A stretch of DNA of 64,000 bases from Lingula anatina (taxonomy: Eukaryota > Animalia > Brachiopoda), in NCBI GenBank assembly GCA_051362555.1, contig CM120641.1, positions 16,368,001-16,432,000 on the forward strand. The letters run 5' to 3'. A program made the position numbers and the translations under genes. The notes beneath the pieces were generated by a model. That model was given only the letters and a program-made list of their open reading frames with translations, had not been told where the DNA came from and made no database searches. Below, piece after piece: positions 6,801 through 57,200 of this stretch. How positions within the stretch are numbered: position 1 is the first letter of the stretch; every line of letters begins with the position of its first letter.

Positions 6801-9800
6801 ACATATGACTTTCGGTCAGCCATCTGTAGAAATTTTTCCCATAATTCCTTCGGTATGGGAGATATTTAGCATTGAATTTCCAAAAATTTTGACAAGGGTG
6901 CCTTTCGACGAGTGTCATGCCAAGGGCAATGCACCGACTGAGACAAAAATACCCAGGGGTTCAAGTTGAGATTATACGTGACTTAAATCCAAGAGATGGG
7001 CACACAGGCCCATGCAGTCTAGGAGGAGAAGCGGTAATGGTGACTTGTATCCCACGACACCCTGCGGAGCCAACGGAGCTTACGGAGCCGGCGGAGCCGT
7101 ACGAGACGGGTCGTGACTAAAACCATGAGTACCGCCAGCGTAGACGCTGGTGGTACTAATAAATGAGATGAATATTTTGCATACATGATAATATATTTCT
7201 GAATCAAGATGAACCAACCCCACATAACAAGGAATTGTCTTAATCTGCAACTCTTGTGGAATAAACCCCATTTCACTTTTTAAAAAATTCAACTTTACAT
7301 CCCAATTTCTTCTATGACAGGCAAATTCCAAATTCTCACCCTGACTAAGACACTGGTTCAGCAAGGCCACCTGTCCTGACACCAGGTAGAGCTTCAGTCT
7401 GGCCAGGACACTTTGTAACGACGGAATGGTGATGAAACAGTAGGCAGCACATGCCTGGAAAATCACAAGCAGATTTTTGTTCAACTGGGGTGATAGAAAA
7501 ATTCCCCAAAAATAAAAATAAGCAAAATAAATGGCTTACTATATTTTCCCTTACATATTCAGCCCAAATTAGGATTTGTTGATACAATCATACATACTAT
7601 ATGTACTTTAAAACCAACAATGGTTTAAGTTGAAAATACTCTGAAAGGCAGAATTGTTGAAATATTCATATTTAAACATAAGTAAAATGTGTAACTACAT
7701 ATTTCTGAAGACATAAATGAGCAAGACTTACTCTAACAAAGCTTGCAGTCTTCCTTGAATGTTTTCCTTTTACCACATCTCTGGTTTCCACTGCTAATGT
7801 ATTTACACACTGAAATAACAAAAAACATTCAAAATTCAATGAAAAACAGCTGAATAATGGAAATTGGAAAAGCATATATATGTGTTATTATCATGCCTTT
7901 ATCAGAGAATGAATCACAATTCAAGTGTGTGTGGCCATGCAGTTGACTATAATATCAACTCACCTCCACCAGTTCAACCAACACTGCATCCAGATTGCTG
8001 AAGTTAGCCCTGGCCTCCACATAGAAACTCAACTGTTGCTCAAAATCACGACCAAAGGATATCTTCCTTACAAACCCACATATCAACCCACCTATGGCTC
8101 TTACTTCATCATCCAGGGTCAGGGCACTGCAAAAGTAAAGTGCAAATTAAGCAGTATGTTTTTAAACTAATCTTTACTTGGTTTAATATGTTTAGTGTAG
8201 GAGAAAATCTCTTCCCCTCCCTCCCTCTCTCTCTCTCTCTGCCATTAACACGAACAACCTTAACTTGTGTAAAGACAACAAAAGCCTCACAATTAACTCA
8301 CTTGACAGAATCATGCATAGTTTTGCAGATGAACATCAGGGCATTGATAATGACAGGATCACTTGTTGCCTCTGCCTGGTATCTTAGAAAGGGGAAAACT
8401 AATAATTAATACACCAAACAGAGAAAAAAATCAATAAATACATGTACTATTTGTTGCAAGTTAAGATTTAAGACAGGTTGATTCTTTTATTCCCTTTTAC
8501 CAAAATGTAAATAATTTTTTATCTTTAATTAAACTGTTTCTTTTGAAAAACTCCAGAACATCTGTCTATTATTTTTGTCAGCTTACTTTACAAAAGCCTC
8601 CATGATGCTTTTACAGACTTCCACCTTCACTATCTCTTTTTGAAATAAGTCGATAAATGGAAGAAATTTGTCCTAAAAATCAATCAAAAAACTTTATCCT
8701 AAAGGATCAAACATTTTTACTTTTATTCATTACTACAATCACTGTAAAACAGAAAAGTATATATTTTCACATTAATGTTTGCTTTAAAATAAATCACAAT
8801 TGGTATAGCTTTTCTGAAATGATATGGTGGCCTTGAAAAAGGCCTTTTCAGTTAAAAATCAGACACATTACTCCGACTGTGGAAAACATATGCCATACTG
8901 AGATCTCTGTAGTGCCTCAGCTTCCTCAGACATTCTAAGTGCATACTCTTGAATCATCTGCTTTACACCAAAGAGAGTGGTGATCTTGAGACGAAGGCTG
9001 TAGCGAGATGCATGTCTACCGGTCATTGTAGCTCTGTAGTAACGTTGCTGGAGACCATAGATGTGGTGGTCTAGCAGCTGAATTTGGTGCAGAGCTTTGG
9101 AGAACTTGGCATGCATAATGGTCAGTTGATCTTCAATGTAGTCAGGATCTGGCATCTGATCAATATCATCAGAGAAAACCTCGGAATCAGACAGATCTGA
9201 TTCAAAGCTGTCACTGTCAATCTGAAGAAAACTTGTCTCAGTTTCCATTTTGGCAAATTGGAGAGAATGTAGAGAACTGCTATCTTAAGAGAAAGCTGAA
9301 TCTCGAGTGATGAGTAGTCTCAAAGTCACAGCTCTTATATCCATACTTGCTGGACTGGAGGAATCTTTAATGTATTATTTTAGGGGAAAGAAAATGGCTT
9401 CATCAGCTTGAGGCTTCCACAGGAAGAGTTGTAACTAAAAAGAAACTGCTGAGGCAATTAACAAAACAACTAACTACCAGTCAATTAAGACTGATACGCC
9501 TGCCAGTGTTCTCTTAATCACCTGCAAATTGATCAAAGGCTGACTACCTGTCCAATTACCTTGGCCAGAGTGTGGCTGTGAATCACAGGTATATGGCCTC
9601 AAGTATATATCCAACAATGAAAATAATTTTATTTTAATCCTATCAATAAGCAAGTAAAGAAATAAATCAAGATTCATACATTTATCTGACACTAAATCCA
9701 TACATTATACTAAAAAATTCAAGTTAGAAAAATGGAGGTTGTCCCTTCCCTTGAAGAATATTAGTAAACAAAAGGCCCCCTCATTTGGATCTTATATTAA

Positions 9801-12800
9801 AATCTTATTTTATAAATCTAATCAATTCTAATGTTACGAGCTTGACTCACAGTGTATCAATATATAAATTTCAATTTCTAGCTCGTATTTCAACAGACAG
9901 CACTTCAGGCCTTTATCTAAACATATTTTGTTTTATATTAAAAAAAGATTTTAAATCATTAACATAAAACTTTTATAAAAATGTTTGCTCTTTCTTTAAA
10001 AAAACACATTTGTCCATGTAAATCATAAAGCTACTGTTCAAAGGTGCTAGTATCAAAATTAAACAATTTACTTAGTTAAATATTTCAGTCAAGCTCACTG
10101 CAGTTATCAAATTGATCTATTTACAGGTAATGTCTATATATTAACTCTGTTCAGATGATTGGGTGTAAGCCCAGTTAAGATCTGTTAACCTGTTAAACCT
10201 GTTAACCTATAACCTCTTTAACCTTTTGATCATCTGTGGATACTGATTAAAATTTCTTTGAAGTGTTTTACTGGTATGCTACATTCACTGTTCTGCTTTT
10301 GGAGGAAACCTGGTATGAAGCCATAAAATATGTACCACTATAATACATAGAGAAATACTGTGCCTATAAAAGCTACAAAATCTGACTAAATTTTCATCAC
10401 TTGAGTTCAGTTCTCTCTTAGACAACAGTTCTCCATATTCTCTCCTGTTTGCCAAGATGGAAAACCAGGTTATTCTTCAGCAGAATGACAATGACCAGTG
10501 GCTGATGGAGAGTTTTGAATCAGACGACACATCTGTATTTGAAGGCTTCTCTGATGACAGCTGGATTGAAGAAAAACATGAAGAGCTAGATCCTGACTAC
10601 GTTGAAGATCAACTGACTACGATGCATGCTAAATTTACAAAGGCTTTGCATCAAATGGAACTCCTGGACAACCACATCAGGGGTCTGCAGCAACGTTACT
10701 ACAGAGCTACAACAACCAGTAGACATGCATCTCATTACAGCCTTCGTCTTAAAATCACCACTCTCTTTGGTGTGAAACAGATGATCTATGAGTATGCACT
10801 TCAAATGTCTGAAGAAGCTGAGGCACTCCAAAGATCTCAGTATGGCATTTGTTTTCCGGAGACACAATAATCTGTTTGACTTCAACCTCAAAAGGCCTTT
10901 TTCAAGGCCACCACATGATACAAGAAAAGCTATACCAAAATGATCAACATTGTCTTTCAATAAAGCTTGCTATAATGAATTTATTTCAGAGAAAAAGAAT
11001 TATTATTGATATTTAAAGTTTACAACTTGAGTATTCTAGCAAAGATAAGTAAACAAACAAACAAATATACAAATAAATAAATCAATAAATAAAATGTTAA
11101 AAGAAACAAGTGAAGGAAGAAATGAATGAATAAACAGATAAAAGAAGGGACAAATAAACAGAAATTTCCTAACCAGTGAGAAGAGTAATGTGAAGTCATG
11201 TATGTGGCTGAGGACTTTGGTAACTATGGACTGCAGCTGGGGGTAGTAATCCTCAAATGCTCGGTCAGGGGTCATGTGCTTGATGACATCATTCAGGATG
11301 GTGTTGACTTCCCTTTTCTAAAAACAAAAGAAGTACAACAACAACTTCATAAAATATCAGAACTAATAGAGGTAGAGATCCCCTTTGTGATAAAATATAC
11401 TGTATCAAAGTTGGGACAAATAAATAACAATCTCAAAGAGATTTTTATACAATTTCAACTAGCAAATTCTATCACTGACTACATTAACTCGACTTCCCCT
11501 TGACTTACTGAGAAATGTTTGGCAACATATTCTATCCACACTTCTGCACAGGTGATGTAATCCTGTAATAAAAAGGATTGGTGATAATGCATGTTTGACC
11601 AATTTGAAATTGAATGTGATGACTTAAACAGACAAGACTCAATGATGCTCTAATAAAAAACATCCATAAAGAAACAATGCAGAAGAAGACTAAGTAGCAA
11701 CTTTATATAAGATGTTATTGTACATTTCTTTAAAAAAAGCTCAGTTATGGAAACTTGCTAAATAAAAGGTTTGTATTTTTCTTGAATTAAAAAAGGACTG
11801 CATCAGATTTATTTGGTACAAAAAACAAACATATCAGTTCTGCTTTTCTTGTAATTCAACTTACCAACGGATTTTTAAGTTTCATAACAACTTTCCACAC
11901 TTCATTCAACACAGCAAGTCTTTGGTCTTCAGGGGGGCTTGCTAGCACTAAACATCCACCCAGACTACAGTATAACATGTGCTGAAACAGAAAACCGTGA
12001 CAATAAAAGTCAGTCTGTGTAGCACGGAAGTTTATACATAACATATAAGATCAACCACTGTAGGGTACTTAGTACAATTCCTTTCTTTTCAGTCCAGTTT
12101 TAAATCTAAAACAGATTTTTATCCCAAATCTTTAATGTTGGTCTGGATCAAAACTCAAGAATTAGACTGATTACACAGCCTTAACACATTTGATTTGGAC
12201 CATTTCTTCTTCCCACCAACGATCTTCTACCTTAGGGAATCCAGTCTCCTCACACTCTCTGATCTGCTCTGTAAACTGCACGGCTCTGAAGGCTATGTAC
12301 TCAGGTTTGAAGGCAGACATGATGGAATTCAACAGCAAAGCACTGAAAATAATATAGTACACAACCTTTAAATAATATGATGTGTGGTTCTACAGGCATA
12401 TGAGTGCACTGACAATTGACCAACATTAAAAAATATATATTTTTTACGCTAACATTATTTTGTGAAGAATCAAACAGTCTTTATATAACTAGCATCTGTT
12501 TCATTTTGACTGTGTAATTTCAAATACTCAGTAGGAGAATAATGAACAAGTTAACTGAATGATACATGCATGCATTATATTTTAAAAACAAAATCAACCT
12601 GTTAAACAGTTTCTTGCACTTTTCCAGTATAGTCTGCAGTGTGTTCTCTGAGGCCCTGTGAGCAATGCACTGCAGGATCCAGTCCAAGGCAGGACAATAC
12701 AGGGTCAGGTACCGTGGCATCTCTACCTTCTGCATGGCCAAGGTGTTCTGGACATGGTCACTTTGGAGCTGAAAAAGATAAATATTATACACTGATTTTA

Positions 12801-18064: not shown

Positions 18065-18073
18065 ATGAAGAGC

Positions 18074-18607
18074 ATGGCCAGCTTGAGTGAAGATGTGAAC
18101 TTTCTTCCCATTATTTATGACATTATTAAAAGGTACTGTTTGGTTCATAAATTGTACGTGATTGAAGTCGATGTAATTTATCAAAGTTGCAGTTTCTGTT
18201 GACTTTGGATTCTAATTTAGATTGATTTTAAGTAAAGACGAAAGGATGTACATTGCAAATAAAGCAAGGCAAGGATGTTTAGCAGGTCAGAATTTGAAAT
18301 AAGAATACTTGTTTACTGGTTTGCTATTTACTCTAATGGTTTATATTGACTTGAGTATCAATTTATTTACCATACCCACACTTTCTTTTCCAGCATTGAC
18401 AAAGATTCCCATGATGTTGGCACCAAAGTGAATGAATTCAAAGTGAAGCTGCAGAAAGCAAAGGACCAGACTGAAAAGCTCCCAGGGATAGAGTATAGCA
18501 AGGAGGATCAACTAAAACAGCTAGACATTCTGAGAAAACAATTGATTCAAAAGACGGAATTACTTCAGAAATACAAAAATCTGTGTAACTTTGATATCCC
18601 AAAATAG
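18074..18607 (+). CDS. MED9: Mediator of RNA polymerase II transcription subunit 9 (2 exons: 18074-18132, 18394-18607; an in-frame ATG also lies at 18065)
   Basis: Not in the ORF track. Spliced translation MASLSEDVNFLPIIYDIIKSIDKDSHDVGTKVNEFKVKLQKAKDQTEKLPGIEYSKEDQLKQLDILRKQLIQKTELLQKYKNLCNFDIPK* matches MED9 hallmarks (FLP..IIK..DKDS, PGI..S.E.Q..QL, K.ELLQKYK.LC.F.IPK). Confidence 0.9.
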
Positions 18608-18661: not shown

Positions 18662-19189
18662 ATGTCCAATGGCACATCAGAGGAGGAATTCCATCCTATA
18701 TTTTCCAGAGATCCAGCAGAATTTGTTAACTTCGTAAATAAGGAAGTTTGTGTAACATTAGAAGATGAATCTCAGCACATTGGCTGGGTGTACACCATTG
18801 ATCCAGTCACTGAGAATATCATCTTGGTAAACTTCATCAATGGTGAAGAGAAACTGGAACTTCTCATGGGTCATGCTGTTAAAGATATTGTTATACTGAA
18901 CAGTAACAAAGAGACCCACAAAGCTGAGTTAGACCGTATGTTCAAGTTGCAAGTGGTAACACAGCTGACTCCAGAGGAGATGAAACAAAGACAAGAAAAG
19001 TTAAGATGTTGGTTGATGAAACATAGAATCCCAGTCCAAACCACAGACAATGAATGTTTGAGTGTCTCTGATGCTCTCGTAATAGAACCTCCCTATACAG
19101 CAGAGAGTTGCAGGAGCACTAATGAAATTGTTCTAGGAAGGGTCCAGGGACTTATAAAAAATATGCCTGACCAGGTGGACGATTGGTGA
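18662..19189 (+). CDS. GEMIN6: Gem-associated protein 6 (SMN complex, Sm-like fold), intronless CDS
   Basis: GWVYTIDPVTENIILVNF..MGHAV, LRCWLMKHRIPV and IEPPYTAESCRSTNEIVLGRVQGLI are Gemin6 motifs; AATAAA at 19434. Confidence 0.92.
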   Translation: MSNGTSEEEFHPIFSRDPAEFVNFVNKEVCVTLEDESQHIGWVYTIDPVTENIILVNFINGEEKLELLMGHAVKDIVILNSNKETHKAELDRMFKLQVVTQLTPEEMKQRQEKLRCWLMKHRIPVQTTDNECLSVSDALVIEPPYTAESCRSTNEIVLGRVQGLIKNMPDQVDDW

Positions 19190-33572: not shown

Positions 33573-43236
<9,664 letters not shown>

Positions 43237-48200: not shown

Positions 48201-51200
48201 ATTTTTTGCTTTTGTTTTCTTTACAGGCAGAGAATCAAAAGGAACCAAGTACAGACCACCCCCCATTGATGTAAGTTCCAGACATTTAGATTTGTTTGAT
48301 GAAAGTAGATCAGAAATTGTTGTATGCTTTGACTATGATTTTAAATGTTTACATACTTGAGTAATATACAGTTCCCATTTCTAAGTATGTGCAGCATCTT
48401 TTTTTTTCAAAGAATTATGTATGTTAAAATGGCATCCTTCTTAATTAGCATGTTTATGTCTTTCATAAATATAGATGGAATGTTAATGCTATTGAACGTA
48501 CACGGATATAGTACAGTAATGATAAATGTACCTGTTGTGCTGTAGTCAAAAAAAATATATGAGAAAAATGACCAGGCACCTATGGTCACAGGTTGCCTGC
48601 TGCCCCTGTCCCCCCCCCTCCCCATCTCCACTGTCCATGGTGTAATGGGCACCATGTTTGTGTTTTTCCTGGTCAGCCATGCATGTTGGACAAGCTACAT
48701 GCATTCTCTATATTTAACAGTGTGAGTGATATATTATGTACAACATGAGTACTTGATTCATATTGATACCTTGCTATAGACTGTTCATCGTTGCAAACTT
48801 CCATTCTCTACAAGGTGCATGGTAATGATCTACAAAAAAGTCAAGTTATATTGGGTAAAACATTTATTGACCAACAATGACTTGCAAAAATGTTGGGGTT
48901 TCTTGTCACTGAATTGTTATTGACAATCTATATAGCAAGGTGAGGAGTTATTTCCACATCTATTATATATTGACAGCTTTTTAGCAAGTCTTTATATTGT
49001 GACGAGAAAGAAATCTGCTGAAAGATAGAGAAAAGCAAATGACATGTTCAGTTTTCAAATAAAAAATACTCACGTAGTGATATGTGAAGTATTGGCTAGA
49101 CTTGACAGTGTCATTAGGATTCCAAAATTACTGAAGATATATAATCTTTAACCATTGTCCAGTTTGATGACCACCTGCTTTTGTTATCAGTTTTCCATGG
49201 GCATTGTCCACTTGTTCTTCTTTGCAAGGAAACTGATTGATGACAATACAAGAGAAGGAATTGATCTAAGTGGATATCTATTTCTTATTTGGATAAAAAC
49301 AAGAGCTCAATTCCTTTTTAATTTAAAAAGTCTTTATAATGTTATAAGAGACTATTTTGTGTAGAACTCTGTCTGATATTTGAGTTTCTTGTTTCTTGTT
49401 TCTACTTTCTGTTAAAATTAATGTTCCCTTTTAGACTATAATTTTATGTCAATATTGGTATAAATTGGTAACCACTGGGAGCCTTCCTGCTGGTCAATAC
49501 ACAGGTGCATGCTCACACATGCTTGCTCATGCCAACAGACTACATATGCACTCACATATTTTGCCACCTCTGACTTGATAGTAAATGTCCATTGTAGGTG
49601 TCAGCTGCAGGGCCTAGCCATGGGCAGTCTAAGACCCCCACCCCCACCAACATGCTCACTCCACGGACAGAGAGAGAAAAGAAGATTGGTCACAGGAGGG
49701 TGGATGAAGCTGGACAAGTCACATACAAGAAGGTAATATGAAATTATTGACTTTGCTTATTTGACCACCCAATGCATTGTTGCAAATGGTGCTGATAAAC
49801 CTACATTATGTACTTGTTAAATGTTCACAGGTAAACAAAATGAAAAAAATAAAAGCTCGAGTGAATCATGCCATAATTGTCAAGAATGTTTAAATATCTT
49901 CACCTGAATTAAATATATGATTCCAACATATCAAAAAAGACAGAAAATACTATCTGGCCCTCCCATTCTTTCATATACTGTAGTTTAATTGTCATGAGTG
50001 ATAAGAGTGTCCCGGATCTTAATGCAGGTATGAAATAACATAGGGGAAAATAAACTTAAAATATACATAATGTATTTGGAGTCTTGTCATTTTGGATTAG
50101 ATCATTGTTACCCTAATGTTTGAAATGTCTCCAGAAGGATGGGCCAAATATTATGAATTTTTATGCTTTATTTAAAGTTAAAAACAGTTTCCCTGATAGC
50201 TGAACAGAAAAGTGCAAGAGGTGGGCAAGACTTAATTTTTTTTGAGAAAATGAATGCAAATACTTGAAATGTAGTTAGGAATTAATTAGTTGAAAAGAAA
50301 AATATTCATTCAGAGCTGTATTTTATTGATTATGAAACCCAGCAGTTGGTTAACCAATGTCTCTGTGTTATCAGACATTTGCATGTGAATTTGTTAGTCT
50401 GTATTGGAAAACATTTCCAACTGTGGAGCAATTAATTAACCTCAAAGTATTATACGTCATCATGACTTTGGAGGTTTTTTTTTTTTTTCTTGAAAAAAAA
50501 GTGAAAAGATGACATTGATATTTCTCCTTGTTCCTGACAGTGGCATATGATATCCTACATAGTGATGTAATTGTACAAGTTCTGTTGCCATGGCGATGTT
50601 TTACAGATGAAGACTGTCATAATGTGTATTGTGTATGAAACATCTGAGGTCTGTACATCTACAGGGTGACAAGGATGTTTTGATGGCATTGGCAGGATAA
50701 AGAGAAGCTTCGAGAAGAAAAGGCGTTTTACTGAAACTAGAACAAGATGGAATTATGAATAATTGTGAAGATTTGATATCAGTTAAAATATGAACAAATT
50801 TTATGTATGCAGCTATGAAGAGTTTTTATTTCTGATTTGATGAATGGTGTTGGATGTGGAAGCTCATTGCTCTTTGTAAAACCAGGCTGTATCTAAAGTT
50901 CCCTCAAGGTAGACAAAAAATTCATTTTGGCCTTTTCAAACATAAAATGCATCGTTTCGGATTCTCAATGAGAGGAGGGACTTTAATTGGCGCAGAGAAC
51001 ATTTACGATTTCTATGATACATTCTGCACAGACTCCAGTAGTGGGGATCTAAACAGTGAACAGGATTTCTCGGAACATATCTACGATAAACTGGATACTT
51101 GGACCCAGACAAGGTCACTAGACCGCGAAGTGAATCTCGCCCGTGCTGATACTTGGCACAGAAACATGGACCAGACAAAAAGTGTTGCTACACTTGAGAG

Positions 51201-54200
51201 TAGTGTACACAGTCTTGTGGACCCTAGCCAGGGGGGCTCTGATATATGTAATGAGGCTTATGGAGTACAAAATTATAACACTGACGTTCAACAGGAGTGC
51301 AAAATTGTGATTGCTAAGACTGGTGATGAGTGTAATGAAATTAGACATTTTAATCTAGATAGCAATTTTTTGTTACCCAAACAAGAAGAAACTTTCACAA
51401 AAAGAATAGGTTGTTCATGGATTGGAGAGCAGGTACAACGATCGGCATTGGCAAACTCTGGGTCTATGCAGTCACTATGCTGTGATCTGCTCTGCCCCTC
51501 TTGTCATAACCAGGGATACTTTCCGAGCAGTGTCTCGGGAAGTGAGGCTGGAGATGTGGAGGAGGATTGCATGCTGGAAAATAATTATTTTGAAACTGGG
51601 AATGAATGTGAACCTGGGACTGAGCCAGAAGGAGATTCCCTGTCCACAGATACCATCAGTGACCAGTGTGACGAAGAGATGTACGACTTCGTGTTTGGGT
51701 CCCTCCCAACTGGCAGTGTCCTAAAGCATGAATTAGATCAAGAATTTCATAAAGCTAGAGCCAATTCTTTTACCTATGGATCGAAAAGAAGAGATTATTC
51801 ATTTGTCAACAAAGCTAAGATATATTCTAATTTAAAGCGTGGGTTTAGTGGAATAGAAAACATTGGTTGGTCCAAGTCATCACCTGTTAGGTTGAGACAG
51901 AGAAGGTTCAGTCATGTAGAGTTAGACAGATACAAGATTGATGTGGACACCATTAATCTGTACATGTATAATAATGGTAAGAAGTGGGACGTGTGGAGAT
52001 TTGGCTCAGAATCTCTTCCAATGGCATACAAGTGGCTTATGCTGCAGATGAAACCACGGTCCTGGTATCATGGCCTGCCTGTAAGTTGGAGACAGTGATA
52101 ACCTGGCAGTTTTAACCACCTTTCTTAATACCAATCATTTAAGAATAATAACCAGTTACTTCACACAAATTTTTTTTCTGAATTGAAAATCCATTCAATG
52201 TTCAGTATTTCTTAGTCAAATCTTTAGGAAGTATAATCCACATTTCAGGATTTTTACTTGAGTTACTCATGGTCTGGGGATTTTTATTTTTCTAAAATTC
52301 AGGAGTATACAGTAATTAAATCCATTTATGATGTTATTCCATACTCAACATTGCTAGAATTTTTATTATTTATTATTTTTAATTGATACCTTGGTGCCTA
52401 GGTATTGTTGCAGGTATTGATTGGACATCATAAGATAATCTGTATGAACTATAAGGTGGCACCTGCACACCCAAGCTTATGGTCCACAAGATTTAACTGA
52501 ATATGAGCTTGTATCATAAACAGTTGTCACTGTAGCTCTGATATGCTCATTGAAAAGCATATGTACCATTAAAGCAAAGTACAAGAATGGAAAATGTATA
52601 AAAAGCAGAGCATCTTTAACTTATTGTGACATAAGTAGTATATTCTATGTATGCCAGTGATCGCATGATCGCAAGTATATAGCAAATATTGAACACAAGC
52701 TACATGTATAGTTCTGGTAAGCATGACACCAAGCTTGCATCCTCATTAGTATGATGTAAAATCAATTGATCTGTAAGGTTTTTTGAATGCCTCCCATGAA
52801 CCTTATTTCCCCGAAACAAGATTTCACATGCAATTTCTGTATTCCAAAAAGAAAAAAAACTATTTGTGTTGTTGTCATAAAGGATCTCATTGTCTTTACC
52901 ATTAAGTGCAGAGTGTATTTTTTATGTATTTCTGTATTTGTTACCAAATATGGTAATATTTTTTAACTGTACATAAACCCTAAAGCACATTTAAGACTAT
53001 AGAGGAAGTTACACAATATTAGAGTTGCATTTTATGTGTTTAATAATTGTTGTTACAGAATGATTTATGGGTAAAATTAATGCTTTCGGGATAATCTGTC
53101 ACTAATGGCAATTTTAGAATATTATAGTACCTGATGTAGGTATTTCATATTTGATTATTATTATTTATTGATATCAAAACTTTTTAAATTCTAGAAACCC
53201 ACGTCAGAGCTTATGGCTGCCATTCAGCTGGGCATTGGTCAGAGCATAGGTGGACTTTCTTCCAAACCAGAACGTGATGTTCTCATGCAGGATTTCCAAG
53301 TAGTGGAAAGTGTTTTCTTTCCAGGGTAGGCCCTGTTTTGTTTTGTTTTTTGTTTTGTTTTGTTTAATTTCTTGTATACAGTCTAATAGATTAGATTGTG
53401 TATCTAGTTTATTCTGAACCATTTACTTTTAGGAATTTTGACCAAAATGATCTCTTTTTTCCTCCAACAGTGTTTGATTAGTTGCTTAGAAAGGAATATC
53501 AATTTCAGCATGAGCCTGAATGTCTTTTTATACAAAGTTTTATTGAATTGGATTTTACTACAATCTAAACTACTAATTCAATTATGTTGTGAAAAATTAG
53601 GTATTTAAGAATCCTCTTTGTGTGGTTTTAAGGATCTCTGTCCAGATTTGGACCGTTTTCAGGCAAGGGAGGGATCTCACCGCTGTAACTTTCTGATTGC
53701 AATATTTTCCTTTTCCAGGGAAGGAAGCAATCTCACTCCTGCTCATCATTATAGTGATTTTCGCTTCAAGACATATGCACCAGTGGCTTTCCGGTATTTC
53801 AGAGAATTGTTTGGTATTCAGCCAGATGATTTCTTGGTAAATATCTTGTTACAACAAAAGAATGGCAAAATATGAACATGATGACAAGAAAGGCGTAAAG
53901 TTACGGTACCCAGCTGTTAATTTGTGAAGAGGATGGTGTCATAATTAAGAAGCTAAAGGGATATGTAACATGAATGAGAGCTGTATGTTGATGCTAAAAT
54001 AATGGCTGAGATGGTAAGATAAAAATATTCGAGCTTATTCTTTTTATTTTCCCATCCATGTCATATTAAAATTGTCAAAAATTGTGTATTTCAGCTGTCT
54101 TTGTGCAATGAGCCTCTCCAAGAGCTTTCTAACCCTGGTGCCAGTGGCAGTATTTTTTATATCACCAATGATGATGAATTTATCATCAAAACAGTGCAAC

Positions 54201-57200
54201 ATAAAGAGGCAGAATTTTTACAGAAACTGTTACCTGGTTACTACATGGTATGTATTGGAGGGGGGGGGGGGGGGGTCAACGAAATGAAAAAAATAAAAAC
54301 ACTATAAGAGTAACTCTCAGATGTTGAAGAATTGATTATTTACCTCTCCAATTTAAGGTACTGATCATACAGGGAGGCATATGTCATGCTTAAGCTGTTT
54401 ACTTTAACTTTACCGTATTTAACTATTCATTAGAGGATTCTTTAATCCCATTGGGCTCCTTTGTATTAAAGACGTTTATTGGTGGCAGTATAATTTGGTC
54501 CAGTAAGAGAAGTCTCTCAGATCACTGAAATGCTTGACTACAGGATTTATCATCAAGCTATGATGTATTTCTTCTTCCAGAATTTAAACCAAAATCTTAG
54601 AACCCTGTTGCCAAAGTTTTATGGATTATACAATTACCAGGTAAGAAATGTTATTGGTGAGCTTTTTCTGTTCTGGCAGACCCATAAAATTGATAAAATA
54701 AATCAAATCGATTGTATTTGTTATTAGAAATCATAAACTTGTAATTATTTTCGTAGTCATATAAGTGGTAAGAAATTATTCTACAAAGTCCACTGTATTA
54801 GGCAGTGATGAAAAATGCATAAAATTCTTGGAAATTAAATACTGGAGGATACAATTAAACTGTAAGAAAATGGTGGCAAATGGCATTTAATGTTGGGTGT
54901 CTTTCACTTAAAGATCAAGGATTTTAGAAGCAGGCAAACTGAGGTATTGTTAGGTTGAACTAATGATATTCCGTTTTAGCTAATGACTATTTTCCTCTTA
55001 TACAGACTATGTTTGGTTAATTTCGGCTTAAATAAGTTTTTAGTTTATTTCTTTATTTTTTATTAAAGGCAAAATATAACTATATGAGAAATATATAATT
55101 AGAACAATTCAAATGGCTTACTTTGACATAAATTCAAATAATAATAGAATTACAGCTTTTTTCGTCTTTTTTGTATGTTCAGACATAGAAAATGTAACTG
55201 AAAATGATCAAATTTTATAGATCATTGCATGATTTGAAGAAATAGGCACTAACTCCCCCATTTCATGTTTTTTTAAAAAGGGAATTTAGTAGGCAGTGAA
55301 ATGGCAATATAAATATATTTATTTATATATATTTCGTTGTTGTTGTTGGAATGTTGCATTAGGAAAACTTAAAAGATAATTATATCTTTTATTATAGATT
55401 TATATTCTATAATATTCTAAGCTCATTAAAGCTCATAAAACATTTCAGGCGTGTACACTTTGATCATATCATTGGAAAATTGCATTTTTTATGCCACTAA
55501 ATATCTGTGCCATGATTAATGAATTCATCAACGAATGATTTATAAATTCATACATATCTGACATAATACATTTTGCGTTTCAGTGTGGAGGCAAAAATAT
55601 TCGATTTGTTGTGATGAACAATTTAATTCCTTCTTCAATTCCAATGCATGAGAAATATGACTTGAAAGGAAGCACATATAAAAGGAAAGCCTCAAAACGA
55701 GAGAGGCAAAAATTACGGCCTACATTAAAGGACTTGGACTTTATGGATATTAACGCTGAGGGAATCATACTGGAAGCTGACACCTACGCAGCATTAATCA
55801 AAACTATACAGAGGGACTGCAGGGTAAGGGGGGCATATTATTTAACATGTACATATGTGGCTGTTGATTATTATTATTATTATTATATTATTATTACTGC
55901 TACTACTACAACTACTGTTACGATTACCAAGCCAGTTCAATGGCAATGTGATATCTTTGTTCATATCACTATATCTGTCTCCCTTTACAGATGTGCTAGA
56001 AGATATACATCTTAATACGATACTTCTTAGTTCTGTATCTTATGTGCTGCATTGAGACAAATGCTAGTTTTCAAAGTTACGAAAAGTAGATTGTATGTCA
56101 TTAATGTCATTTTATTTAAAGGCATTATAGTGAAGGTTTACAGTGATATGAGTTTGCAAGCCTATACAGAATGTGTGAATACACTAAATGTACATAATGA
56201 TGTGGGAATGAAGCTTGAGGCTTTAAGAAAAAAATCCTACAGATCCAGATACTTTGATTTCCCAGGTGTTAGAAAGTTTTAAGATCATGGACTACAGTTT
56301 ACTGCTGGGAATTCACAACTTAGACCAGGCACAGAGGACCAGAGAGATGGAGGAGGAACAGAAAAGGATCAACAGGGTACAGTAGTCAGACTTAGCCCAT
56401 CTAGATGGTGCTTTCTCTTTTAGTCACATGAATGAATCAATGAATTTGCTTTCTACCTCTTTATTTGGCCTTATATAAGTTAAGAAGATTATTTGAAAAA
56501 GCACTAAAAACTTATCCTTTTGAAAAAATTTCTGATAAAGCATTTAATTCCCTACGGAACATTATAATTGGATATTTTTCTCTTTACTTTGCTTACCATA
56601 ACTTTTGAATTAAAAATAATCCTTTTAAACTTGTATTTTATTTGTAAAGTCTACAAAACATATTATTATTATTATGGATTTAGATTAAATAAATGAATAA
56701 ATAGATTTTAAAATAATTACTTCTGTTTTTCAGGCTGCACCAACTCCTGAAATGAACAGACAGACCTCTAACACGTCTGAAGGTGAATCAGGAGCTAGAG
56801 GTATGAATACAATTATTTTCAATTTCTTTGGGAACATTACATATACAGTACACAGTTCTTTAACCTTTACAGTAAAGGTTAAAAAAATTATAACTTTAAA
56901 CTTTAATGTTTGTTATATGTGCTGGGTTTTTATTTACATATTTCAATTTAAATGACTTTTAACCTGTTTCATATTACTTTTGAAATTCCCCAAGTGCATA
57001 CATGTTTTCGTGTTGCTCTAAAGGAAGTATTCTTACAGTGCAATTAAATTATGTTTAGTGTTTTAAATATATGAAATGTGTTGGAATCCTACAGGTGGGC
57101 TTAACCGTGGCAAATCTATGAAGCAGAAGCTTGCCCAGTATTCCACAGCTTTAGAATCTATTCAGGCAGAATCAGAACCAGTGGAAGTGGAGAATGAAGA

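Follow-up and report, generated by a model that had tools for sequence, protein, structure and literature searches.

To our knowledge, the SLBP/U7 pathway serves replication-dependent histone mRNAs only, as described from vertebrate, fly and sea urchin evidence. With the metazoan replication-dependent histone genes, two genes in the 64-kb window (the whole stretch of DNA that was analysed) share an intronless, TATA-type, multi-copy organization, here as a head-to-head pair. They also share a 6-bp stem with a 4-nt loop near the stop codon and a purine-rich element 13 nt downstream. We propose, with a probability of roughly three in four, that these genes, copies A and B, are intact, selected paralogs of one family whose mRNAs are bound by SLBP, cut by the U7 snRNP and not polyadenylated.

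Copy B (10457..10870, plus strand) is an intronless ORF of 137 aa from a helical-hairpin family, and its paralog, copy A (8868..9248, minus strand), is an intronless ORF of 126 aa. Together they form an inverted repeat, and the lack of introns is judged from the ORFs alone, which run continuously through the family core in both copies. Putative TATA-like boxes lie 92 nt 5′ of the ATG in copy B (10365..10372, plus strand) and, in alignment with it, 91 nt 5′ of the ATG in copy A (9332..9339, minus strand). Across 92 codons, dN/dS between the copies is 0.14 (Fisher p 4e-9), with pS of 0.45 and dS of about 0.69. By sequence comparison, then, copies A and B are intact paralogs under purifying selection. 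We rejected a retrocopy origin of the pair, because the homology takes in the promoter and the HDE, both absent from a processed message.

An intron of the expressed gene VPS35L (8673..11173, minus strand; 2501 nt, GT..AG) houses both genes, copy A in sense and copy B in antisense orientation, an arrangement absent from an earlier note on this DNA. The flanking exons match human VPS35L (E 9e-20 and 1.5e-7), and spliced reads span the intron in 8/8 RNA runs. The copy A cassette lies on the sense strand of this intron, yet the host splices across it.

At their 3′ ends, both ORFs have the arrangement that the earlier note described. A histone-type stem-loop begins 23 nt past the stop (10894..10909, plus strand, in copy B; 8829..8844, minus strand, in copy A), and an identical purine-rich 14-mer, a putative HDE, follows 13 nt past the stem (10923..10936, plus strand, and 8802..8815, minus strand). 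The Rfam Histone3 (RF00032) scan which that note had proposed gave matches at 10889-10934 on the plus strand (38.2 bits) and 8804-8849 on the minus strand (35.1 bits), both above the gathering score of 34 and the only Rfam matches in the whole window. Similarly, a degenerate stem-loop pattern allowing up to two mismatches occurs twice in the window, against 0.00 expected from 100 dinucleotide shuffles. A chance hairpin was rejected on these shuffles and on the relatives' stem-loops, which exceed both shuffles and an upstream control. Between copies, the stem-loop with its flanks is identical at 24/24 positions and the 14-mer at 14/14, whereas the spacer (4/9), the stop-to-flank segment (12/19) and the next 30 nt (7/30) have diverged, again as previously described; homology between A and B stops at the 14-mer. 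Given a pS of 0.45, identity at all 38/38 cassette bases has a probability of about 1e-10 under neutrality, and on this comparison the cassette is under selection.

This cassette is the same as that of replication-dependent histone genes, which makes SLBP binding and U7 cutting of the two mRNAs likely, an interpretation that we hold with good confidence. SLBP would bind the stem-loop, and cleavage by U7 snRNP would occur about 5 nt past the stem, near 10914 in copy B and 8824 in copy A, in place of polyadenylation. Production in step with histones, either during S phase or in oocytes and cleavage-stage embryos, is somewhat better than an even bet. According to an excerpt of PMC5054213, U7 carries a conserved UCUUU box, whose complement is AAAGA; the 14-mer fits AAAGA at just 4/5 positions. 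Its predicted duplex with human U7, used as a stand-in, has an energy of -5.4 kcal/mol versus -4.5 to -4.9 in adjacent windows and is not discriminating.

The two proteins belong, by profile comparison, to an unnamed protostome family found in molluscs, a nemertean and Priapulus. HMMER detected 261 homologs at E<=0.001, where a single-sequence word search found none. The mollusc, nemertean and priapulid proteins, compared by protein only, share the hairpin core at profile E-values of 1e-28 to 1e-57 (for example Priapulus LOC106809991, Aplysia LOC101851965, Magallana K1PH20 and Mya MAR_014602), and all are annotated as hypothetical or uncharacterised, without a Pfam family. A slowly evolving subfamily spans gastropods, bivalves, Octopus and Priapulus.

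For the 3′ ends of relatives, we selected genes by protein motif alone, using a back-translated motif scan of metagenome loci. This yielded 105 matches in 102 loci, all family members at >=62 bits. The scan reaches about 4 in 10 known members (108/263 for the closest tested form) and leaves out the subfamily nearest the window copies as well as the slowly evolving one, so the stem-loop counts exclude both. After 15 matches with too short a downstream sequence were dropped, 90 with at least 100 nt remained. A stem-loop lies within 200 nt past the stop in 65/90 matches, in 32/49 after clustering at 90% and in 13/23 at 70%, compared with 0/43 upstream and a mean of 0.24 (maximum 2) in shuffles. 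The relaxed rule behind these counts, which demands 5/6 pairs, was set after a first, strict scan had been seen; the strict rule found stem-loops in 42/105 matches, one of them spurious. Rfam scored 15/18 submitted stem-loop-positive loci at 22.8-37.8 bits, a range comparable to the scores that genuine H3 stem-loops obtain in this dataset (21.7, 24.6 and 27.7 bits). Changes on both sides of the stem occur at 4/6 pairs, counts that the 5/6-pair rule inflates, while G2-C is invariant and U6-A is present in 33/34. Furthermore, AAAG occurs 10-21 nt past the stem in 25/32 relatives versus 1/32 in each flanking window, and AAAGA in 19/32. Duplexes with the human U7 stand-in average -5.3 versus -4.5 when shuffled and are better in 20/30, which is likewise not discriminating. 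One frameshifted relative, L013, retains its stem-loop.

The remaining 17/49 non-redundant relatives have no stem-loop by the relaxed rule, indicating that the protein does not need this type of end. Among them is a branch that sits directly behind a histone H3 gene at 3/3 testable loci (L005, L045 and L062), with H3 on the same strand 1.1-1.4 kb upstream; at L045 and L062, the H3 gene has AAAAGA at the position matching the relatives' element. Judged from these loci, the stem-loop is a family-wide trait, though not a uniform one, and messages of the family are likely produced the way histone messages are. The earlier note's proposal of a non-histone family with a co-opted 3′ end thus holds as to the proteins, the selected cassette and its family-wide presence, though not as a uniform property; homologs lacking the stem-loop, which that note had named as a possible refutation, are outnumbered by the 32 that carry it.

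Transcript data came from eight RNA runs, five labelled poly(A) or oligo-dT and three unspecified. Four had no reads on either ORF, and four had scattered reads only, which we attribute to intron pre-mRNA or a divergent paralog. These mostly poly(A) runs thus gave no convincing read of copy A or B and no 3′ end; VPS35L was covered up to 50-fold in the same runs. Near-absence from poly(A) libraries fits a tail-less message, and silence fits equally well.

It is also conceivable, though we consider it unlikely, that SLBP binding to the stem-loop serves storage, translation or decay while the messages are mostly polyadenylated downstream, like dual-ended histone messages in oocytes and some tissues. 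Copy B has an AATAAA, a possible fallback poly(A) signal, 50 nt past the stem (10959..10964, plus strand), and copy A has one at 103 nt, a position not conserved between them. Downstream of stem-loop-positive relatives, however, such signals show no enrichment (8/24 sense, 12/24 on the opposite strand). Four reads at <90% identity in the oligo-dT run X8 suggest capture of some paralog by poly(A) selection, whereas poly(A) runs contain almost no trace of copies A and B themselves. Polyadenylated maternal histone mRNAs in Drosophila and Xenopus, mentioned in an excerpt of PMC11997800, offer a precedent. A purine element at a fixed distance, by contrast, is a known requirement of U7 cleavage only.

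Alternatively, the copies could be silent or decaying, their cassettes matching because the pair duplicated recently or because gene conversion acted between the inverted arms, rather than through use. The lack of convincing expression, the inverted repeat and the stem-loop kept by the frameshifted L013 all suit this improbable reading. It does not sit well with a dS of this size at so low a dN/dS, intact frames and TATA boxes in both copies, a diverged spacer between two invariant blocks, or a cassette kept in unrelated animals. Slightly less probable still is the idea that the genes ride in a mobile element or endogenous virus, which once acquired a histone 3′ end and carries it along as it spreads. 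Members are multi-copy, intronless and dispersed, lie in introns or adjoin unrelated genes, and occur in tandem in several contigs. On the other hand, a scan of 129 of the 170 candidate flanking ORFs, in short loci, turned up no transposase or reverse transcriptase family, one motif had 0 matches in viral contigs, stem bases change in pairs, and the slowly evolving subfamily extends from molluscs to Priapulus.

Returning to the main reading, of selected genes that are probably processed like histone messages, we asked what they encode. The earlier note called the proteins acidic, and the overall pI of 4.6-4.8 agrees, with one refinement: the hairpin tip is basic, with 5-6 K/R and zero D/E within 26 aa. 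A confident structure model has two long helices, each some 40 residues in length, and the protein is thus a predicted helical hairpin with a basic tip and acidic tails, without a histone fold. We rejected highly diverged histones or protamine-like proteins, with nothing exceptional about them, as very improbable, a reading that the earlier note had itself named as a possible refutation: the intronless, TATA, head-to-head, stem-loop layout and H3 linkage are histone-like, but there was no histone Pfam match in 141 and 29 family members, the family profile had a 0.1% probability against H3, the model is not the three-helix fold, and the protein is acidic overall.

The ESM Atlas gave no usable match for the window protein or P0066, and a profile search of PDB sequences gave weak coiled-coil matches only (best E 0.005). 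Fold searches returned generic hairpins, with no histone-fold chain among the 50 matches listed in each; among those listed, the best VIA Z was 11.0 (5vo5_A, rmsd 1.2, 82 aligned), a score that many unrelated chains share, and the best Foldseek E was 0.24. The two-helix shape is that of antiparallel coiled-coil hairpins (the ESCRT-III core, prefoldin, the ING N-terminal domain, the LSD1 tower and SMC arms), but identity is at most 20% and none rises above the generic helical background, so we make no family assignment. Tentatively, the conserved Arg/Tyr-rich tip and acidic tails may make it a small chromatin or DNA-associated partner.

A literature search found nothing that dealt with the family or described an SLBP/U7 client other than histones; some older work, dealing with annelid histone clusters and with how histone 3′ ends are processed, lay outside it and could bear on novelty. 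If its selected stem-loop and HDE work as proposed, this family would be the first cellular non-histone client of SLBP/U7. Poly(A)-based transcriptomes would then count too few of its messages, and it would point to a protein that may be required alongside the histones in molluscs and related animals.

Together, the comparison with replication-dependent histone genes extends to gene layout and 3′ end and parts at the product, since copies A and B encode no core or linker histone. By analogy, the stem-loop-less relatives recall replication-independent histone variants. A speculative extension is that protostomes have kept this non-histone family since before the mollusc/priapulid split and run it like a sixth histone class: multi-copy, SLBP/U7-processed stem-loop genes made with histones, accompanied by variants that evolve slowly or lack the stem-loop, one being H3-linked. 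The product would be an unrecognised chromatin protein that model animals have lost or have never been seen to possess.

Two divergently oriented, intronless ORFs lie in the window, copy A (126 aa; 8868-9248, minus strand) and copy B (137 aa; 10457-10870, plus strand). In both, the same 16-nt hairpin occurs 23 nt past the stop codon, and the same purine-rich 14-mer, a predicted U7 target, follows 13 nt past the hairpin. An earlier note, made from the sequence alone, had described these ORFs, stem-loops and 14-mers, and all were found where it placed them. The Rfam Histone3 scan that it had proposed put both stem-loops above gathering (38.2 bits for copy B and 35.1 for copy A versus 34); these are the sole Rfam matches in the window, and the stem-loop pattern is absent from 100 of 100 shuffles of it. 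The window contains neither an H3 gene nor a third family copy.

Over 92 aligned codons, the copies differ with dS ~0.69 and dN 0.096 (dN/dS 0.14; Fisher p 4e-9). The hairpin with its flanks is identical at 24/24 positions and the 14-mer at 14/14; identity is 4/9 in the spacer between them and 7/30 in the 30 nt beyond the 14-mer. Homology takes in the TATA-like boxes 91-92 nt 5′ of each ATG and ends where the 14-mer ends, and the pair was therefore born by DNA duplication. On this sequence comparison, selection is the best explanation for the two invariant blocks. Gene conversion across the inverted arms could contribute to cassette identity, and we therefore put relatives to the test.

To scan metagenome and viral contigs, the protein motif, with no other input, was back-translated into a DNA pattern. 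The 102 delivered loci, of which L014 and L015 are one contig, hold 105 matches, every one a family member at 62.7 bits or more. Under a strict hairpin rule, fixed in advance, a stem-loop lies 3′ of 42/105 stops, one of them spurious. A relaxed rule, defined after looking at the strict-rule misses, places one within 200 nt of the stop in 65 of the 90 matches having at least 100 nt downstream. The earlier note had proposed looking for the same stem-loop in homologs, and non-redundant relatives carry it in 32/49 cases after 90% clustering and 13/23 after 70% clustering. The relaxed rule finds it in 0/43 upstream regions, on 3/49 opposite strands and at a mean of 0.24 over 200 shuffles. Of 18 positive loci submitted to Rfam, which is independent of the hairpin rule, 15 matched at E ≤ 0.05, with scores of 22.8-37.8 bits and three above gathering; among 20 strict-rule misses, Rfam detected seven family stem-loops and one H3 stem-loop. 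Across 34 aligned hairpins, both sides change at 4/6 pairs and the G2-C pair is invariant; the count of 28 cells versus 8.7 in shuffles is partly a product of the hairpin selection rule. Two tandem stem-loop-like hairpins follow the stop in L004, L035 and L086. In L077 and L083, which have no stem-loop, the frame breaks at the same point past the core, at a possible splice donor, and these are possibly intron-containing variants.

Downstream of the stem, AAAG occurs 10-21 nt away in 25/32 relatives and in 1/32 in each flanking window. Pairing with human U7 is only slightly better than shuffled, and the window 14-mer offers 4/5 bases able to pair with UCUUU, the conserved box of U7 according to the available text of PMC5054213.

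In a tree of 90 columns and 51 rows, weak at depth, with its root position not fixed and the frameshifted L013 scored positive, stem-loop-positive genes are found in most clades. The stem-loop state changes at least nine times among the 51 rows, and the 16 negative rows are not one clade (p-AU 2.5e-43). The simplest reading would be an ancestral stem-loop, lost repeatedly. The two copies of the window join, loosely and on long branches (93/93), a slowly evolving subfamily of molluscs and Priapulus. Proteins P0322, P0280, P0281, P0293, P0300, P0307, P0316, P0320 and P0327 represent this very slowly evolving subfamily, which is common to gastropods, bivalves, Octopus and Priapulus.

One clade combines eight stem-loop-positive and 13 negative matches. 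Its negatives with at least 1150 nt upstream, from three datasets (L005, L045 and L062, the last two called on 77 and 135 nt of downstream sequence), are H3-linked in 3/3 cases: a canonical H3 gene with its own stem-loop, present in L045 as the last 23 codons only, lies 1.1-1.4 kb 5′ of the family gene in the same orientation. H3 is upstream in 0/19 other matches with at least 1150 nt of upstream sequence. The H3-to-family-gene spacers have diverged among the three loci. Within 400 nt upstream of 30 family genes, AATTA/CAATTA, GTGTCA and CACGTG are enriched relative to dinucleotide shuffles; presumably, these words resemble homeodomain, TALE and E-box sites.

We propose that transcription would start near the TATA-like box, that SLBP would bind the hairpin and U7 pair with the downstream element, and that CPSF73 would cut ~5 nt past the stem, following the pathway as outlined in the available part of bioRxiv 10.64898/2026.10.14.759114. 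The resulting message would have no tail and would share the timing of histone messages. We give SLBP/U7-type 3′ processing of family messages a probability of roughly three in four; the histone-like timing and the role of the protein are weaker inferences than the processing step.

Spliced RNA reads connect 8671 to 11173 in 8/8 runs, which places both copies within a 2501-nt intron. The host gene lies on the minus strand, and its exons match human VPS35L. Host exon depth is ~2 to 50. At 90% likeness, the copies have no reads in runs X1, X4, X5 and X7; at 80%, scattered reads fall on the ORFs in X2, X3, X6 and X8. Those of X3 at the copy A 5′ end are host-oriented, with similar reads in the intergenic part of the intron, and the four X8 reads over copy B, all below 90% identity, are read as coming from a paralog elsewhere. 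With five runs labelled poly(A) or oligo-dT, three unspecified and 6-26% of each run read, these data are compatible with a tail-less message or with none. A message bound by SLBP yet polyadenylated is an unlikely alternative to tail-less processing, and silent copies are distinctly less likely still. Slightly behind comes the idea that the genes are mobile cargo; the motif pattern matched 103 stretches in metagenome contigs and none in viral contigs.

The copy A cassette (8802-8844, minus strand) is sense to VPS35L pre-mRNA, ~130-170 nt 5′ of the 3′ splice site. VPS35L is spliced across it in 8/8 runs, yet the cassette might trigger some premature VPS35L cleavage in dividing cells. In L042 and L058, family genes adjoin exon-sized pieces of glycogen debranching enzyme and MFS transporter genes, which suggests that intron nesting is common for the family. 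Elsewhere in the window, 54 nt separate the end of the two-exon MED9 gene (18069-18607, plus strand; Pfam Med9, E 8.5e-17) from the start codon of Gemin6, an intronless ORF (18662-19189, plus strand); the two are a possible bicistronic or read-through unit. A PIP5K gene exon lies at 55614-55826 (plus strand), and long acidic ORFs at 41440-43236 (minus strand) and 50854-52098 (plus strand) have no Pfam match.

That the proteins are a divergent histone is the least credible alternative, as neither the copies nor family members reach the cut-off of any Pfam family and the family profile does not match H3 (probability 0.1%), in agreement with the earlier note's view that they are not histones. Scanning the full library recovered 261 representatives at E ≤ 0.001, and profile searches recovered 125 and 81 proteins. 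The members that have a name are hypothetical proteins and come from bivalves, gastropods, Octopus, the nemertean Tubulanus and the ecdysozoan Priapulus, a range that is a lower bound because most members are unnamed. AlphaFold2 (141 sequences) predicts helices at 46-86 and 90-129 and a disordered N-tail, with 81 residues at pLDDT of at least 90; the matches listed in fold searches are all generic hairpins. The hairpin turn is conserved, with R80, Y81, A84, Y94 and R97 almost invariant, and it is basic: its net charge has a median of +6 and reaches +5 or more in 112/141 members. The flanks are acidic (-5 or lower in 93/141). Two features alone, this distribution of charge and the resemblance of the gene's design to that of histone genes, lead us to infer that the protein may act on chromatin or nucleic acid.

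In its available text, PMC4604434 presents replication-dependent histone mRNAs as the sole known non-polyadenylated cellular mRNAs and finds that SLBP has no true target in human cells outside histone mRNAs; the SLBP/U7 route is likewise restricted to replication-dependent histone mRNAs in that of PMC5054213. Word searches of the accessible portions of a mollusc histone survey (PMC12210499), a 2026 review of histone gene organisation (PMC13525598) and a bivalve histone paper (PMC6210712) found no such non-histone gene, and the open-access literature searched, main texts only, holds no report of such a gene family. Compared with replication-dependent histone genes, the family gene would work alike, yet its product is not a histone.
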